IMG/VR virus record: IMGVR_UViG_3300025543_000016
Location: 1,785-65,784 of that record
Length of the DNA stretch: 64,000 nt
DNA from: a virus
Lineage: Duplodnaviria > Caudoviricetes
Direction: 5' to 3' (one strand)
In this document: positions 1 through 58,975 of the stretch, piece by piece
How positions within the stretch are numbered: the stretch's first letter is position 1
Layout: every line of letters starts with the position of its first letter
Notes under the pieces: generated by a model
The model's input: only the letters and a program-made list of their open reading frames with translations
Database searches by the model: none
What the model was told of the DNA's origin: nothing
Made by a program: the position numbers and the translations under genes

Positions 1-3000
1 ACTAACTACATCTCCTGTTTCTGGGTCTATAAATTCAACTTTGTTTTTATTTTGCCTAGTTAAACTTTGATAATTTGCTAAATAAGCATTAATTAATGTA
101 GCTGTAAATTCAGGTCCTTTTAATCCACCATATGTTTTACCTTCTTTATCTAAAATTATACCTCTATTTTCACTATCAAGAACATCTTCAGTTGTTGAAG
201 GTAAAAAGCCATCTTTGGTTCCTGCAACTCTTAATACTTGAAGTCTTTCTTCTTTTGATAATGTTAAAAAAGCAGGGCTATTTAAAAGAATATTTGTTAT
301 ATTAAATCCGTTATCTAATTGTTTTAATTCTTCTAATTTATTAGAATCATTTAAGTCTTGAATTTCTTTTAAATGAAAAGTACCCATTTGATGAGCGTAA
401 ACAAAATTACCTTCAGGATTTAAAAATACACTTTGTCCAATTGTTTCATCAAACATTGCATTTGATTTAGCAAGTTTTTGTAAACGACTTCTAGCACCAC
501 TACCTTTTTTATTAAATAAATAACCAGCACCTGTATTACCTTGTGTACTTAATTTAACTTGATTAGATAATTCTATAATAGCATCTGAATCAATAGCTTC
601 AGCTTGTTTGTTATTATTAATAACTTGATTTAAATAATCATTATTATTTAAATTGTCTGAATTATTTAAGTTAGATATAATGCTAAATTCAATATAAGAA
701 GGGCTTATATTTATACCAAGGTTTTCATAAATGTTAAGTGATAATTCTTTAGCTTTATTTTCAATTTGATCAATTAAATCAACTGAATTTAAATCAAATT
801 CAGCTTCAGTATTATCTAATAAATAAGCTAAATCAGATAAAGAATCAGCTGCTTTGTTTGCAGAAAAATCATCTTTTTTAATAGTATTATATCTAGAACT
901 GTAACCTTGTTTCCAAACATCAATTTGATTAGTTGCATCATCTCTATTTGAAGCATTATAAATAAGCACTTTTTTAATAACATCACTTTGAGATGCGCTA
1001 TGTATAAATAAATAATCAACTTTAAAGTTTTCAAATCCTTTATAGATTTGCATAAATAAACTTGTATTTTTTATTTCTTCTAATACATCTTCTCTTAAAC
1101 CTGTTCTTAATGTTTCTCTTGTTAAACCTATATCATTAAACATTCTATTTACAACAGCATGTGTTTGTTTATTTCCTTTAGAAAACGCATCCATTGCACG
1201 TAAAAAATTAACAGGATCATTAATGTTTTTAACTCCTTTTAATAAACCGTTATATGCGCTTTTAAAATCAACTGGTGTATATATAGGATTTCCTGATGGT
1301 AATTTTGTATTACCAAATTCATCTTCAGCTAAAAGCATTGTGGTTCCAATATAAGCTCTTAAAGCAGTTGGTAAATTGCTAAAACCACCAATCATTGATT
1401 GATCTTTATCCCAATCAGAAACATTTCTTAAACCTTCAAACTCTTCAAACTCTTCATTGAAGTATTCTTTATCTTTAATTTGCTGATCAAATAAAGATAT
1501 GTATTCTGTTATAGCTTCAGTTGCATTTTGTTCAAATTCAATCGCTTGAGTTATTACGTTAATATCTGCATTATCATCTTTACCACCTAAAGCGGTATAT
1601 AATTTATCTAATTTAATTAAATCTTCACCTGATTTATAGGCATTAGTTAAACTAGCAGGATTATATAAAGATCTAAAGTCTTCTATTGTTTCACTTAATA
1701 TGTTAGATCTTGATTCTCCTACTGTAATATTTTTTACTTTAGTTAAATAAGAAGCTGTAATTTGACGTATAACTAAATCAGCAGTATCCGGATCTAAATA
1801 TTTATTTGCAAATCCTCTTTCTAATTCTACTTTAGCATATGTAAGTACTTTGTATGCTTCTACAACAACACCTGTATTAAATTGATTGGTATAAATATTA
1901 TTAACAGAACTGCTAGATTTATATTTACCGGCATCAATGTTTTCAAACAAAGTATTTAATTCATTTTTATTATACTTGCTAAATACAGATTTAATCCATT
2001 CAATAAATCTTGTAAATAAAGATTTAATTACAGGGGATGTTTTAGTAGCGCTTGGGTTAGTTTTAAAAGTTTCAAATTCATCAGCTAAATATTCTTCCAA
2101 ATATTCTTTTTCTAACTGAGCATTTGTCATGCTTTGATACTTTTCAGCTCTGCTTTTAAATTTTTCTAATTCAAGTTTATAGTTTTTATTTTTAGCTTTA
2201 AGTTTAGCAATTACTTCTGTTTTAGCAATAGATAAATACTTTTTAATTTCAGCATCTGATAGTAACAATCTAAATACAGAATGAAACGCTTCATGATATC
2301 TAAAACCTTTTTCGCCAACATAAATTGTTCCTCCTATTTCAACGTTACCTGCAAGTTTATTTAGCTCCATAATAAATACACCAATAGGCATACCTTGAAC
2401 TTTTAATTTAGCAGCAACTTCTTTTATGTTTTTAATTTGAACAAAGTCAGGTAAATTTGCTTGAGCCCAAGCAATAAATTTATCAATAGCTTCTACATCT
2501 TCAACCGTAAAATCATCACTTACTAATTTTGGAGCATATGCATTTAACTTTCTTTCTATTACTGTTAATTCACTTGTAAGTTTTTTATATTGAGGATCAT
2601 TCTTTTTAACAGCAGCGTTAAGAAATTCTAAAGCTGTCATTTGACCTGAATCTTTCATTTCTTGTAATTCAATCAGTCTAACTTTTACCTCTTCTTTTTT
2701 AACATCATATTGATTTTGTAACTGAACTAATTCAGATTCAACATTTGAATTAGCTTTTATTTCATTAGCTTTATATTCAATTAAAGATTTTCTATTACTT
2801 TTAAGAATTATGTTTTCTCTTTCAGTTAAATTTTCTAAACCTTCTAATGCTAATTTGTTAGCTAAATTATTAATATATTCTTTTTCTAAAGTATTAAAAT
2901 TAGTTTTTAAATAAATATCAAACTCTTCATCTGTTAAATCATTAACGTTAGATGTAGAATCCAATACTTGATTTATTTCATCTAGTTTATCCTTAACATC

Positions 3001-6000
3001 TTTAGTAACTGTGCTCTTATCATTTTCATCAGGTAAATTATCTAATAATGCTTTTCCGGTTTTAAGTTTATTTACATCGTCATTACTAAATTGAAATCTA
3101 ACACTTAAATCTTCAAATAATTCTTTTTTTACATTTGTAACAGCAATTTCCATTACTTGATCTGCAGTTAAATCATCATTAATAAATGTTTTAACATTAT
3201 CAATAGAAACAGAAATACCTAAGTTTTTAGTGTCTTTACTTGTTTTAGTCACATCACCAAATACTTTAAGTAATTCAGTAAATGTCATTTTTTCTAAAGT
3301 GTCAACTCTTAAAAAAGCATCAATGTTTAATTTTTTTTCTTTGGCTCCTGTGCTATCAATATATATAATTTCTACACCACCTTTTGCTGTTACTTTAATC
3401 TCAGCATCAATACCTGGTTTAATAGAAATATAAAATTTAGAATTAAATTCATCATTAAATGCATCATTAAAATCAGAATTTAATTTATTACCATCTTCAG
3501 ATATATTTTCATCAATTGTTTTTTTAGCTTGTTTAATAAGATCTTCCATTAAACCTTCATGATTTTCTACAGGAAGAGCTGTAGATTGCAAAGGAACAAA
3601 AATAATTTTTCCGTTTGGTATTTTAACTACAGCATGATATCTATCTTTTCTTTGGCCAACATAATCTAATAAAGTTTTACCTACTGAATTATTAGTTTCA
3701 TTTAATTCATTTAAAATATCATCTCTTAATTTTTTTTCTTCAGGAGAATTCTTTTTATAATTAGTTATGTAACTAGTAAGTTTTTTTCTTTGTTTAGTTT
3801 TAGAATCATAACGTAATCTAGTATCAATAATAAATAATTCACCATTAATTGTGTTATATTCTAATTCAGATAAAGAATTTATACCATCTCTTGCAACATC
3901 AGTTTTAGTTTGATATGAAAATCTATATGCTGTAAAAAAATCAGGAGCAACTTCGTTTAATGGAATTTCAATAATATTATTATCACCAAGTTTTTCTAAT
4001 AAAGCTTGTCTTAATAATTCTTGTTGAGCCATTGCATTTAAAGACTCATCTTTTTTTACAAAATATTTAGCAGCATCGCTATCGCTAAGAGTATAAGGAT
4101 TTTTAATAACTTGACCATCTTCAGTAAGTAATTCAATATTACCAGAAGGAATTTGCAAATTTATATCATCTAGTGTACCTGCATTTCTTTCAACTAATAA
4201 AGCATTAATTTTTTTTCTTAAATCTTGATCTTTTACAACTATACGGAAGCTGTGTGTTTCACCATTAAGTTTAATTAATTTATTTTGTTCTCTACCTGGA
4301 GCTGAATGAAATCTATGATTAGAGACATTTTCATTTTTTTCTACAAGAATTGATAAATTAGAAAGTTGTTCTTTAGTTAAAAATTTAAATATAAGATCTA
4401 CAATATATCTTTGTCTATCGCTAGATTTACTATCTTCAGCTGTCATTGGATAAACATCACGTATATTTCTTACAGTAAGACGAGCTCTATTTTCATTTTT
4501 TAAATTATCAGCAAAGTTTTCTTTTATTAATTCATACTGAGATTTAAATTCGGATTCAGTTACTTTAGCTGAAACTTTCAATCTTTCTTTAGTTGTCTTA
4601 GCTGTTTCAAGTTTATTTTCAGGTAATAAATATAATTTACCTCCTGGATTTACTGTTGATGGAGATCCTAATACAACAAATCTTTCTTTTTTTTCATTTA
4701 TTACAATATCACCATACTTAATAGATTTATCTCCAAACTCAAAAGGAACAGTATCAGGAATTATTTTCTTTAGGATTATGCCAATTTCTATTGCTTTTTT
4801 ACTTGTTGGAAAAGCACGTTGTTCTACTCCTGCTGCTTCATAAAAACTATCAGATAATTCATCACCATTTATATCAACTATTTTATAATAATTATTTTCT
4901 TCATTCTTTTCTTTTATTTCAACAACATAAATATTAGAAGTTATTTTTTTTATAAGTTCTTGATTAGGTTTTAAATTTAATTTGGAATTTTTAGTTATAG
5001 GACCTTTTAAAAATTCAAATGTTAAACCTGCATTTAATACAGTATCTCTTAAAGCAGGATTACTTGAATTATTATTAATCCATTCAGCCATTCCAATTTC
5101 ATTTCTAATAATATTAGCAAAGTCTTTTTGTTTAGGGTCTAAATTTTGAACCCATAACTGTTTAATATCCATTAAATAACTAGCTAATACTTGAGCTTTT
5201 TCAGTTGCTGACCATTTTTCTAATGATAAAGGTTTTTTATTTAATGATAATTGTTCTGTTGCATACTCTGTATATTTTCTTTTTAATATATTTTTAGCAT
5301 AATTATTTACGTTATCATTATTAATAACTTTATTTGCTTTATCTGCTTTATCTTTATTATCAGGTTTATTTGTAGAATCATCAACAAAATTTCCAAATCC
5401 ATCATCAGCTAATTCTTCCTCTACTACTTCAGGTTCAGTTAGTTTAATATAATTATTTTTGTACATTTCAATTGTTATCATGAGCTTTGGGTTATTCATC
5501 ATGGTTATTTCACCACGCTCATCATAAAAATTAACTAATACAATTGAATCTCCATTAGCTAGAAATTCTTTAGCTTGTTCAGCATCAGGTAAAGCTCCTT
5601 CATCATCAATTAATTTTAATAATTGACTTGCTAATTGTTTATCAGAAGATCTTTTAATAGCATCTCTAATTTCAACTCTATCTTGAGCATATTTAATTTT
5701 AAAATAGTTAGCCGTTTTATCAGCAATATCATTAATTACTTCAGGATTAGTTAAAATTTCAGCAGCTTTATCATACATTTTAGTTCTATACTGAAGTGTA
5801 CCATAATCTACAATTTTCTTTAATACGGAATTAATTTTATTTTTATCAACAAAAGCATTATTTACTTTTGCTAAGTAAGCAATATAAGCTTCAAAAGAAG
5901 CTTGTAGTTTAGCAACTTTTCTTCCATCAAATTTACCAGTGCCTTCTTTTTTATTAATTGATGTTTGATTTTCTTTTGCTGTTACTACTTTATAATAGTT

Positions 6001-54600: not shown

Positions 54601-55027
54601 CTGCTTTGACCCGCAAAGGTTTAAATTAATAATGAAAGATCGCCTGTTACGCACAGCTACCAGCTACCAATAACCACAATACCAGTTAGAAAACAATACA
54701 GAATATAGTGAATGTTATATGTTATTTTTATTTATTTGTGTGTTGAGTTGTTAATAGGTCATCATATAAGCCATAATCATTGGTTGTATGCTTATCATAA
54801 TAGCAGTCACACAGTATAATATAAATATAGCTATAATAATTACGTGCACTCAACAAGCACTCAAATTATAATTGCATTGTGTATTATGTTCTTCTCTCTA
54901 TGTATCTATATAAAGAGTAGTATAATATTACCCGCAATATCAAAACAGGCACATAGACAAATACCTGTATAAATTATGTATTATTTTATTAATCACCTAA
55001 AGCTGAAGAGCATTGTACTACAACATT

Positions 55028-55300
55028 ATGATAAATACAATTAAAGTATATCCGCATACATACATGGATAGAGCAGAAGGAGATCATTTCAAAGCTTTTC
55101 ATATAGCTGATCTTATTCATCAGGGAATTATGAACTTCTTGACTAATAAGTTAGGTTCTATAACCTTTAATGATATTAGTACTAATGAAAGTTATGAAAT
55201 TGAATTAGTTAACGTTGATGATAGAACATTAGATGAAATTAAACTAATGTATCCAAATATATCAATGAGAACTCTTTGCACTTATAAAGACTGGTGCTAA
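55028..55300 (+). CDS. Hypothetical protein
   Basis: ORF track; ATG at 55028 preferred as start. Confidence 0.55.
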   Translation: MINTIKVYPHTYMDRAEGDHFKAFHIADLIHQGIMNFLTNKLGSITFNDISTNESYEIELVNVDDRTLDEIKLMYPNISMRTLCTYKDWC

Positions 55301-55428
55301 TGTTCTTTGAAGATGCAGAATTTGCTTGGGAGCTCTATAAGATATCTCCTGAGCTAACTTGTACTTGTGATGAAGTACATGTATGTCAACAGTGCTATAA
55401 AGAATGGCAAGAAGACTTAGAAGAGTAG
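55300..55428 (+). CDS. Small acidic Cys-rich protein (42 aa)
   Basis: MFFEDAEFAWELYKISPELTCTCDEVHVCQQCYKEWQEDLEE*; TAATG coupling to the upstream ORF. Confidence 0.55.
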   Translation: MFFEDAEFAWELYKISPELTCTCDEVHVCQQCYKEWQEDLEE

Positions 55429-55446
55429 CCTGTCAGCTTATCTTCG

Positions 55447-55580
55447 TACACGTTAGGTCCAAGTATGGCCGTTGGGTTTGACAACCCTGAACCGTGTATT
55501 TGACTTGTCTGTGGTATATGTAACAGTCACCGTCAACCGGGTAAACGGTCGTTAAGAGGTAACCATGCTCTTTATTTTTT
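55447..55580 (+). ncRNA. Candidate structured RNA (multi-hairpin) ending in a terminator-like stem
   Basis: tacacg/cgtgta encloses the ggtc/ggcc and gggtt/aaccc hairpins; then tgact/agtca, ccgt/acgg and aagag/ctctt plus a U-run. Confidence 0.45.
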
Positions 55581-55600
55581 CACCTTAAAACAAAAACATC

Positions 55601-55777
55601 ATGCTAACAAGAATCTTAGTAGTGCTATTAACAATATTTGTAGCATTTAACTGCTTTAGAGCAGGACATTATGCATCACAAGGAGGAGATACTGGAAGTG
55701 CAGTGTTACTCTTCATTATTGGTGTTGCATCTTTATATATACCATTAATCCTAAAAGAAAAACCTAATAATACCTAA
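55601..55777 (+). CDS. Small two-TM membrane protein (58 aa)
   Basis: MLTRILVVLLTIFVAFNCF..SAVLLFIIGVASLYIPLILKEK; A-rich leader. Confidence 0.6.
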   Translation: MLTRILVVLLTIFVAFNCFRAGHYASQGGDTGSAVLLFIIGVASLYIPLILKEKPNNT

Positions 55778-56084
55778 ACATCATGAGAATATATGTAAAA
55801 AATCCAGGCAGATTTGCCAAGTACAAGGATCAAGTTGTACTAACACACTTATAATAATTATTACATGAATATATATTTATATAGCTACAAAGATCATAAT
55901 TACTGTAGTTGCAAATAGATATTTATTGTTATCTCTCTCTATAGTATTATATGTCTTATTACTTATAAGAGAAGTATTATATCAACCGTGATGTTGTAAA
56001 AATATTAAACACTTTAAATCAGCTGTCTATATAGATAAGAGTTCAAAGCCTCTATAAATGATGATGAGAGTGTATTTAGTTAGT

Positions 56085-56480
56085 TTAGCATTTAAGTCTT
56101 ATTTATAAGCTTTGAAGTCCAGCTGACAAATGACAATTAACACATTTACCACTTTGAACAGGTAAATGCTAATATCAGTCATTTGTTAACATGTACAAAC
56201 ACTAAACCTAAGAAACTAACGATTATGTGATACCTATTTAACATAATGACGAAAAGTAGGGAGCTTTTAATATTATTCTGTATTAATTGCTATATCTTCA
56301 AATGTGAGAAACTTGAAGATGAATCTCATTAAACATTGAGTAAACATTATAGAATTGCAGTTTAGTAGCTGTAAATGTTTTTACTAACTCAATGTTTATT
56401 AAATATTACAAGTGTGTAGGATGCTAAAAGGCTAGACCACTCTGACAGTTAAACTCTGTTGGCACACTTGTTTTATTTTT
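56085..56480 (+). ncRNA. Cluster of candidate structured RNA domains
   Basis: Closing stems 56085-56094/56163-56172, 56330-56341/56387-56398 and 56408-56416/56463-56471; possible pseudoknot at 56294-56329. Confidence 0.45.
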
Positions 56481-56591
56481 ATTACATTAAAGACAACCAG
56501 GAGTCTATAAAATAACCTTTTGATAAGACTGGACGAAATATTACATTAACTATAATTAATATCAAGGTTTAACAATATAAATAACAATATT

Positions 56592-56825
56592 ATGTCACAT
56601 AATACAACTAAAATAATAACAGCAATTGCAATACAACTACTATCACAACATAGTGTTAAAGTGATTGAGGGGTATAAATTATCAGTTATAACTAGTTATA
56701 CATCTGAATTAGAAGATATATCTAAAAAATATAACTTAAAAATGGTTGAGTCATTTAATCAACAATTTACTGTTCAAGGTATATTTGAAGTAACAAATAG
56801 TACTCATCATACTATAACATTATAA
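56592..56825 (+). CDS. Hypothetical protein
   Basis: ORF track; A-rich leader. Confidence 0.5.
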   Translation: MSHNTTKIITAIAIQLLSQHSVKVIEGYKLSVITSYTSELEDISKKYNLKMVESFNQQFTVQGIFEVTNSTHHTITL

Positions 56826-56897
56826 TAGAATAACAACATTAAACCTGACTAGAGATAACATCAAAGGTCAGGTTATTAAAAACAAATAAATAATACT

Positions 56898-57137
56898 ATG
56901 AACATCACATTAATTTACCTCGTAACAACAGATAATGGAGAATTACCTGAATTTGCAACAACTGAAAGATTATTAGCAGTAGTTGATAATGAAAAAGATT
57001 TACATACAATAGTAGATAAATATCATACTGCTGAAAGAAATTATAAAGCTGATGGAGATATTCCTCAATATCTACAAGATTTATATGATACAGAAATTAG
57101 AACTGAAGAAATTACACTTAATCAAGAAATAGAATAA
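56898..57137 (+). CDS. Hypothetical protein
   Basis: ORF track; A-rich leader. Confidence 0.6.
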   Translation: MNITLIYLVTTDNGELPEFATTERLLAVVDNEKDLHTIVDKYHTAERNYKADGDIPQYLQDLYDTEIRTEEITLNQEIE

Positions 57138-57141
57138 GTGT

Positions 57142-57299
57142 ATTTAAAAATAACGGCAGGTGGATGTATTATTCCTTAAATGAAAAGACTGCACAGACCC
57201 GTAAAGTCGGGTGGATATATTGTGATTATTCCACAATGACTTAGAGCTGAAATTCAAAGTAAGTAGCCCTTTAAGGTAGGTAGGTAAACCTTTTTAAAT
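57142..57299 (+). ncRNA. Candidate multi-stem structured RNA
   Basis: atttaaaaa/tttttaaat and ccttaaa/tttaagg enclose the acccg/cgggt, attgtg/cacaat and actta/taagt hairpins. Confidence 0.5.
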
Positions 57300-57322
57300 T
57301 AAATCCAATAAATAATAATATT

Positions 57323-57703
57323 ATGAATATTCAATTTGAAAAAAAATGGGATAATATGTCTCAAGAAGAATTAGTAAAAAAGATTAAAGCTGTAAAAAGC
57401 CAACTCTTTGCTCTTCAGTATCAGTTACACGCATATAATGATGGGTATTTATACCTAACATGTTTGCGTAGCTATGGTTCTTTGTCCTGGGAAACTCATA
57501 TTAATGAGTATACAGTTCAAGAACTTTGTGACCAGTATGACGGTTATGATGGAATAGTAGATGTTTATACTACTAATCCTAACACTACTGTTACTACTGA
57601 GGGATCTGTAGAAATAATGACTCTTGATGAAATTAAAAATGTTTCTCAAGATAACATTTCCATGTCAGCAGCTGTAAGTAACTGGATTACGAAGAGTATG
57701 TGA
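57323..57703 (+). CDS. Hypothetical protein
   Basis: ORF track; A-rich leader. Confidence 0.65.
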   Translation: MNIQFEKKWDNMSQEELVKKIKAVKSQLFALQYQLHAYNDGYLYLTCLRSYGSLSWETHINEYTVQELCDQYDGYDGIVDVYTTNPNTTVTTEGSVEIMTLDEIKNVSQDNISMSAAVSNWITKSM

Positions 57704-57949
57704 TTAAGATGGGGGCTTATTATTAGCCTGGCAACAGAAAAATTTCACCTAAGCATGTGTCTAAACTGCTTTATAAACTCTCATCCAATTGCAGGTGTTA
57801 TAGCAATAACAAGAAGAATTTATAAACAAACATTTATATTATTAATATTTAAATCACCCAGAAAGAAGAAGGGTTAGTGTAAATAAATAAAAATATAGCA
57901 CGCTTTCTGGTAGTGATTTTACTGACAGAGTGGGAAGCCCACATCTTAA
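57704..57949 (+). ncRNA. Candidate ~245-nt structured RNA A
   Basis: 14/15-bp closing inverted repeat at 57704-57718/57935-57949; internal GNRA hairpin, possible pseudoknot and ccagaaag/ctttctgg stem. Confidence 0.55.
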
Positions 57950-57966
57950 AATAAAACATTATAATT

Positions 57967-58222
57967 AAACATTGAACCAAGTGAATAAGGGACCAATCCT
58001 GCCAGCAAATTTGGTGTGAGTTGATAGCTGGTATTCACATAAAGATACTAATCCTGAATTGACAGGTTCTAATAGTAAGGAAACTTATGCTATTATTGAG
58101 AGAGTAATCTTAGTTGTGTTGTTCCTGTTGAAAGGAATGCGGGGATAAATAGAGATAGAAGTTGCTAACCGTAACTCTACAACACAGATGTCTCAACATC
58201 ATCTTTAGGTTCAATGTTTTTT
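57967..58222 (+). ncRNA. Candidate ~255-nt structured RNA B
   Basis: Perfect 12-bp closing stem at 57967-57978/58208-58219, at least eight nested helices, and a terminal U-run. Confidence 0.65.
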
Positions 58223-58243
58223 AATATAAAAAAATATAATACA

Positions 58244-58447
58244 ATGAAAAAAACAAAAATAATGTTAGCAATAATAATAACATTTCTTACCACTTGGTTT
58301 GTAGTAACTTTAATTACTTATATGTTAAGTAGTGATATAAGTTTAAGAAAAGCTGCAACAGAACATTTTACTTTAATAATTATGGTAGTTTTTGGGTGGA
58401 TTCCTTCAGTTGTAATTGGAATAGATCTTGACAAAAAATTATATTAA
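58244..58447 (+). CDS. Small two-TM membrane protein
   Basis: MKKTKIMLAIIITFLTTWFVVTLITYML..FTLIIMVVFGWIPSVVIG; ATG at 58244 preferred. Confidence 0.65.
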   Translation: MKKTKIMLAIIITFLTTWFVVTLITYMLSSDISLRKAATEHFTLIIMVVFGWIPSVVIGIDLDKKLY

Positions 58448-58469
58448 CAAACATTTAAATCAATTTAAT

Positions 58470-58751
58470 ATGCAATTTACATTTATAATACATGATTGGC
58501 CATTTCGTAAATATAACAACCAAGTTGTTATAATTATATCAAATGAAGGAAAAAAGTCTTTAATATTGGATCAACAAGGTGATTACAATACTATAGAAAC
58601 TACAAAACTTAAAGAAGTTACTCGTGAGTATGTAGAAAAAATGGTCATTAAAAATCAATTATTCCGTGAAATATGTTCAGATGAAGGTTTAATTGAAGTA
58701 AAATACCAAGATTCAATTGGTTATTTATCATATATAAGTAGTTATATGTAA
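58470..58751 (+). CDS. Hypothetical protein
   Basis: ORF track; ATG at 58470 preferred. Confidence 0.55.
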   Translation: MQFTFIIHDWPFRKYNNQVVIIISNEGKKSLILDQQGDYNTIETTKLKEVTREYVEKMVIKNQLFREICSDEGLIEVKYQDSIGYLSYISSYM

Positions 58752-58757
58752 AATTTT

Positions 58758-58792
58758 AATAGATGAAGTTGTAATGACTTCATCTATTTTTT
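58758..58792 (+). terminator. Intrinsic terminator
   Basis: aatagatgaagt/acttcatctatt 12-bp stem plus T-run. Confidence 0.8.
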
Positions 58793-58816
58793 ATTAATAT
58801 TATAAACTTAAACATT

Positions 58817-58975
58817 ATGCAACAACAAGAAGAAGAATGTCAGTATTTCTATATTAAAAACGGTGTTGAATTTGTAACACCATCATTAGAACATGCAATA
58901 GAAAAATGTACAACAAATATTATTAAAGTAAAATACGGTAATAATACAACAGCAGAAATAAAATTAAAAAATTAA
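58817..58975 (+). CDS. Small hypothetical protein (52 aa)
   Basis: MQQQEEECQYFYIKNGVEFVTPS...; below the ORF-track length cutoff. Confidence 0.5.
   Translation: MQQQEEECQYFYIKNGVEFVTPSLEHAIEKCTTNIIKVKYGNNTTAEIKLKN

Follow-up and report, generated by a model that had tools for sequence, protein, structure and literature searches.

A short form of a widespread, uncatalogued family of structured phage RNAs encoded by a crAss-like phage

Locus and predicted fold of the element

The window analyzed here is a 64,000-nt stretch (positions 1,785 to 65,784) of the 65.8-kb IMG/VR virus record IMGVR_UViG_3300025543_000016, which is estimated to be 57% complete. Its 728-aa protein is a large terminase about 25% identical to those of Crassvirales. 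The element lies at 57967-58222 on the + strand, in a 546-nt intergenic region, and the start codon of a small membrane-protein gene (ORF 58244-58447) follows 22 nt downstream. The upstream 126-aa ORF has no relatives in IMG/VR by pattern search, and if TGA is read as Trp it would extend to 184 aa through one TGA (57323-57877), but there was no other sign of recoding in this region, and ORFs under TAG=Q or table 4 did not explain the non-coding region. The G+C content rises to 0.35-0.37 over the element against about 0.23-0.29 around it. ARAGORN found no tRNA or tmRNA in the window. At gathering scores, Rfam 15 found only a RAGATH-1 hammerhead in the whole window (56490-56568, +; 57 bits, gathering score 56.3), and at E <= 10 over 55400-58900 it added a twister-P1-like motif (56011-56071, +; 46.6 bits, below the gathering score of 67.2) but nothing over the element. 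These two motifs lie 1.4-2 kb upstream of the element, in the same ORF-poor early region.

To test the stability of the fold, the minimum-energy structure of 57967-58222 was compared with that of dinucleotide shuffles. The + strand folded at -69.6 kcal/mol, while the shuffles averaged -54.6 +/- 4.6 (z = -3.26), and 1 of 200 shuffles folded as well. The same closed domain formed when the whole 546-nt region was folded, and the - strand folded less well (-57.4 kcal/mol, z = -2.89). The initial annotation had proposed a highly branched, probably novel ncRNA of unknown function, and each helix it named was located by string search; the minimum-energy fold contains the closing stem and most of the arms. 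The closing stem joins 57967-57978 with 58208-58219 by 12 perfect pairs, and a U-run follows at 58217-58222. However, inverted repeats with an exact 12-base seed within 300 nt are not rare in this AT-rich window (52 pairs), so the closing stem alone is weak evidence, and the strength comes from homology and covariation.

Within the closing stem, helix H2 (GUGAAUA/UAUUCAC, 57981-57987 with 58032-58038) encloses a copy-specific insert with two small hairpins, GGGA/UCCU and GCCAGC/GCUGGU. The latter (58001-58006 with 58027-58032) shares base 58032 with H2, so one pair must be given up. The junction AUAAAGAUA follows at 58039-58047, and its bases 58040-58046 (taaagat) can pair with atcttta at 58201-58207. 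A CUA...UAG-closed branch (58048-58113) holds three hairpins, namely H3 (UCCUG/CAGG, with cctg at 58053-58056 and cagg at 58063-58066), the GAAA-capped H4 (58070-58095), and H5 (GAGA-GUAA-UCUU, 58100-58111). Helix H6 (UGUGUUGU/ACAACACA, 58115-58122 with 58179-58186) encloses H7 (ttcct/aggaa, 58122-58137) and the hairpin AGUUGC/GUAACU (58160-58176). The annotated helix ttgaga/tctcaa (58096-58101 with 58191-58196) competes with the GUAA-capped hairpin and with a pseudoknot, both of which are supported by the family described below, and it is probably replaced by the pseudoknot.

Relatives of the phage lack the element

To find homologues in related phages, we searched IMG/VR by pattern for relatives of the 728-aa protein; 592 of 599 hits encoded such relatives, and 80 loci were kept. 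Blastn and nhmmer of the element against these 80 loci gave only chance hits, and none had the element by the covariance model described below (1.04 Mb searched). Five complete 116-kb relatives had no match anywhere, so the element is dispensable in this phage group. The gap between two conserved flanking genes is 0.5-1.6 kb in relatives and 3.6 kb here, and relatives keep the membrane-protein gene without the element. Folding the syntenic gaps of three of these loci (L007, L018, and L019) showed no similar shape, although a 29-base motif at 57746-57774 (+), unique in the window and containing a 5-pair hairpin, is shared with them at 87-93% and likewise lies upstream of the small membrane-protein gene there. 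Blastn of 57700-58260 against 50,697 phage records gave no match.

A conserved core defines a large family

Four sequencing runs were then compared with the region. RNA run X14 held a 221-nt contig lying wholly inside the element (57984-58204, one mismatch), and nothing else of the 1301 nt was covered at 95% or better in that run. This is one low-depth contig in a library that may hold DNA, and parts of the stretch without cover are uninformative; transcription of this copy is supported only indirectly. RNA run X16 held four contigs at depth 18-155 that shared only the 30-34 nt at 58032/58033-58062/58066, three of them exactly and one with a single mismatch, and then ran on unlike the window. 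This pattern suggested a conserved core shared by many different RNAs.

The 20-mer at 58040-58059 occurred exactly in 32 IMG/VR phage contigs and in 6 MAG contigs, of which two were clear members and the others weak. Alignments showed conserved blocks separated by variable hairpins, which define a structured RNA family of about 270-550 nt (229-552 nt by the boundaries we set). In order, the full-length form has a 5′ hairpin (H1) whose loop is the nearly invariant UAAACAUUGA (L1), helix H2, the junction AUAAAGAUA, a CUA/UAG-closed GNRA hairpin (in long forms a branch with two extra hairpins), helix H6 enclosing hairpin H7, the strand UUCUCAG that pairs with the H7 loop, and a 3′ domain of two long hairpins comprising H9, GUGACCCUAC, H10, and GGGUGCUAA. 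Compact members replace the whole branch by one GNRA hairpin.

Covariation supported the shared helices. On a MAFFT alignment of 19 sequences, 93.7% of cells were paired against 36-46% when the partners were slid, 19 of 38 pairs changed on both sides against 3-9 slid, and none of 500 shuffles reached any of these measures. Both sides changed at 4 of 6 pairs in H2, 3 of 3 in the H5 stem, and 6 of 8 in H6. For the 3′ domain (30 sequences), 89.2% of cells were paired against 41-51% slid, and 15 of 17 pairs changed on both sides against 7-10 slid. The sequences were found through exact motifs, so the invariance of those motifs is by construction.

No Rfam family covering the element was found in 20 member loci at gathering score or in 12 loci at E <= 1, where the only hits were tRNA, tmRNA, and weak noise. 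One could suppose that the element belongs to a described class, such as a group I intron, GOLLD, ROOL, RNase P RNA, a piece of tmRNA, or a self-cleaving ribozyme like its neighbors, because it is large, pseudoknotted, rich in GNRA loops, and phage-borne, and family members lie near tRNA and tmRNA genes. We consider this very unlikely, since none of the 4227 Rfam 15 models matched over 57700-58250 at E <= 10, and members are flanked by unrelated sequence, by complete tRNA or tmRNA genes, or by new ORFs with their own starts, not by split exons. GOLLD and ROOL (10.1101/2024.12.08.627333) are also large, many-helix phage-borne RNAs, apparently without known function and often beside tRNA genes, in which variable insertions seem to hang on a conserved core, and multimeric cages are shown for them. 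The present family did not match their Rfam models and is smaller. Candidate structured RNAs of IMG/VR viruses (PMC10690425) rest on the same data source and the same kind of evidence, covariation in phage intergenic regions, but are 29-151 bases long, and pieces of this family could be among them. Apart from this possibility, our literature searches gave no description of the family.

The window copy is a short form

To test membership of the window copy, we built a covariance model (R1; 193 positions, 20 pairs) from 14 members without the window. R1 scored 58032-58200 on the + strand at 94.1 bits (E = 8e-21) over the full model length, 19 of its 20 pairs were standard, and there was no other hit below E = 0.1 in the window. 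Other members scored 49-175 bits, and R1 gave 67 matches in 69 new loci. The loop of H7 (UGUUGA, 58126-58131) pairs with UCAACA (58193-58198) at -6.2 kcal/mol, while typical members pair UUGAGAA with UUCUCAG at -6.9 kcal/mol, which indicated that the pseudoknot is kept through changes on both strands. Its 3′ strand lies in a degenerate family block, B5 (GAUG-UCUCAACAUC, 58187-58200), aligned to model positions 176-193.

However, two parts of the full-length form are missing. The L1 decamer UAAACAUUGA is present at 57966-57975, but it is a hairpin loop in full-length members, whereas here the 5′ strand of H1 is absent and no local hairpin can form (-1.3 kcal/mol). The 3′ domain is also absent; nhmmer with a 66-member profile found nothing in the window at E <= 10, and no block matched with up to 3 substitutions. 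Among 73 members found with the B5 motif, 61 had both strict motifs of this domain and, by eye, 71 had the domain; lacking it, the window copy is classed as a short variant and not as a standard member. Instead, it has a copy-specific 3′ tail (58201-58222), 19 nt of which pair with two conserved family motifs: AUCUUUA pairs with the junction and GGUUCAAUGUUU pairs with L1, zipping the RNA into a closed three-way junction that ends in a U-run. No such complement of L1 was found at a corresponding place in other members. The closing stem and taaagat/atcttta of the initial annotation are peculiar to this copy, and that the element is a truncated, self-closed variant of a much larger family could not be seen from the sequence alone.

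Because the 3′ domain and the 5′ strand of the L1 hairpin are missing and close relatives of the phage manage without the RNA, the element could be a decaying relic that lost its 3′ domain by deletion or recombination and no longer does anything. This is the main rival explanation, but we consider it unlikely. Besides the 19 intact pairs, the pseudoknot is restored by six Watson-Crick pairs after changes on both strands (by our rough estimate the chance of this is below 0.01), the 19-nt tail complements two separated conserved motifs, and an RNA-library contig covers the element. Moreover, at least one other member (locus L107) has a non-canonical 3′ end, a single long hairpin, so the 3′ domain is replaceable.

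The perfect terminal inverted repeat and the absence from relatives could also point to a DNA-level feature, a small mobile or recombination element bounded by 12-base inverted repeats of the motif AAACATTGAACC. A second inverted repeat built on the same decamer lies at 56330-56341 and 56387-56398 (+), where UAAACAUUGAGU pairs perfectly with ACUCAAUGUUUA, and the 91-nt stretch around it (56318-56408) folds at -21.7 kcal/mol (z = -3.67). The decamer thus occurs twice on each strand of the window, each + copy with a downstream complement, while L1 complements elsewhere in the window occur at chance frequency. But the interior is homologous to an RNA family whose helices covary, G-U pairs and fold energy favor the + strand transcript, a scan for the two motifs 220-250 nt apart gave 116 stretches, none of them family members, and no transposase or recombinase lies nearby (PHROGs search of 9 neighboring ORFs, which gave nothing usable). 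This explanation is very doubtful.

A family member in Cellulophaga phage phi14:2

Blastn of a member against phage records hit only the cultured Cellulophaga phage phi14:2 (KC821624), a member of the Crassvirales. R1 gave 137.3 bits at 3016-3208, within a full member at about 2913-3360 that has the L1 hairpin and the 3′ domain, and Rfam 15 at E <= 10 gave only three noise hits above E = 6. The RNA lies in the rightward early region and a small hydrophobic ORF follows. GenBank annotates three minus-strand ORFs of 34-39 aa (gp007-gp009) in the RNA region (3106-3431), and a tmRNA predicted by ARAGORN at 4031-4500 is unannotated and overlapped by gp013 and gp014. Two long intergenic regions of this phage, g004-g005 and g005-g006, were reported as transcribed rightward, early, persistently, and above most genes, without a structure, family, or function (Drobysheva et al., bioRxiv 10.1101/2020.03.07.982082). 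From gene order, we infer that g004-g005 is this RNA and the other region is the tmRNA. If this mapping is right, the family explains one of the two abundantly transcribed regions.

Genomic context and possible role

A tRNA or tmRNA lies within 1 kb in 20 of 90 distinct loci and within 150 nt in 9, almost always on the same strand, and tmRNA follows within 150 nt in 5 loci. These genes are not homologous to the element and were called separately, next to it, by ARAGORN and Rfam. No protein family recurs beside the RNA, as the best cluster covers 5 of 30 loci and Pfam is silent on it. This context bears on whether the element is a cis-acting leader or terminator controlling transcription read-through or translation of the small membrane-protein gene, which is suggested by the closing stem, the U-run, and the ORF that follows, and by the small hydrophobic ORF downstream of the phi14:2 copy. 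However, in 62 family loci with a downstream ORF the following gene is unrelated from locus to locus, and only 10 are hydrophobic against 228 of 963 background ORFs. The terminator scan listed no site here, and the stem before the U-run closes a 229-nt interior rather than a short G+C-rich hairpin. Cis regulation is therefore unlikely.

Taken with the homology and covariation, we consider with good confidence that the element is a genuine structured RNA gene on the + strand and a shortened, self-closed member of a widespread phage RNA family that no catalogue holds. No function is shown for any member, and a stable trans-acting RNA is the best guess. We infer that it is transcribed rightward with the early genes, folds into a compact, nuclease-resistant RNA, and acts in trans through the conserved pseudoknotted core, either as a binding platform for a host or phage factor or as a catalytic or assembling RNA, and not as a regulator of the neighboring gene. 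Large bacterial and phage RNAs with many conserved helices have repeatedly turned out to be ribozymes, guide RNAs, or self-assembling particles, and few such classes remain unexplained.

A more speculative possibility, which we hold only tentatively, is that the class has hundreds of members or more in phages of 18-373 kb, is modular, sometimes tandem and in at least two phages split into two genes that each start with the same hairpin, includes what we infer to be the abundant, persistent early non-coding RNA of phi14:2, and has a pseudoknotted core that is a ribozyme or an RNA-only assembly unit, with the short form delimiting the minimal active core. Split members, each half with its own L1 hairpin, were found in loci L108 (2980-3330 and 3571-3842) and L089 (4440-4880 and 3760-4160 (-)), and a full copy followed directly by a compact copy was found in locus L091 (3856-4361 and 4380-4640). 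With the short form, these natural dissections show which parts can stand alone. Hairpins that look like tRNA T-arms (stem GUGG/CCAC with a UUCAAAU-type loop) recur inside variable insertions of members, in the 3′ domain of loci L130, L184, and L190 and in H2 of L165 and L118. In the window itself, two non-coding blocks at 54728-54945 and 55300-55617 (+) are conserved in several relatives (69-96% identity), the second has a G+C of about 0.42 in a 0.27 background, and they may be further structured RNAs.
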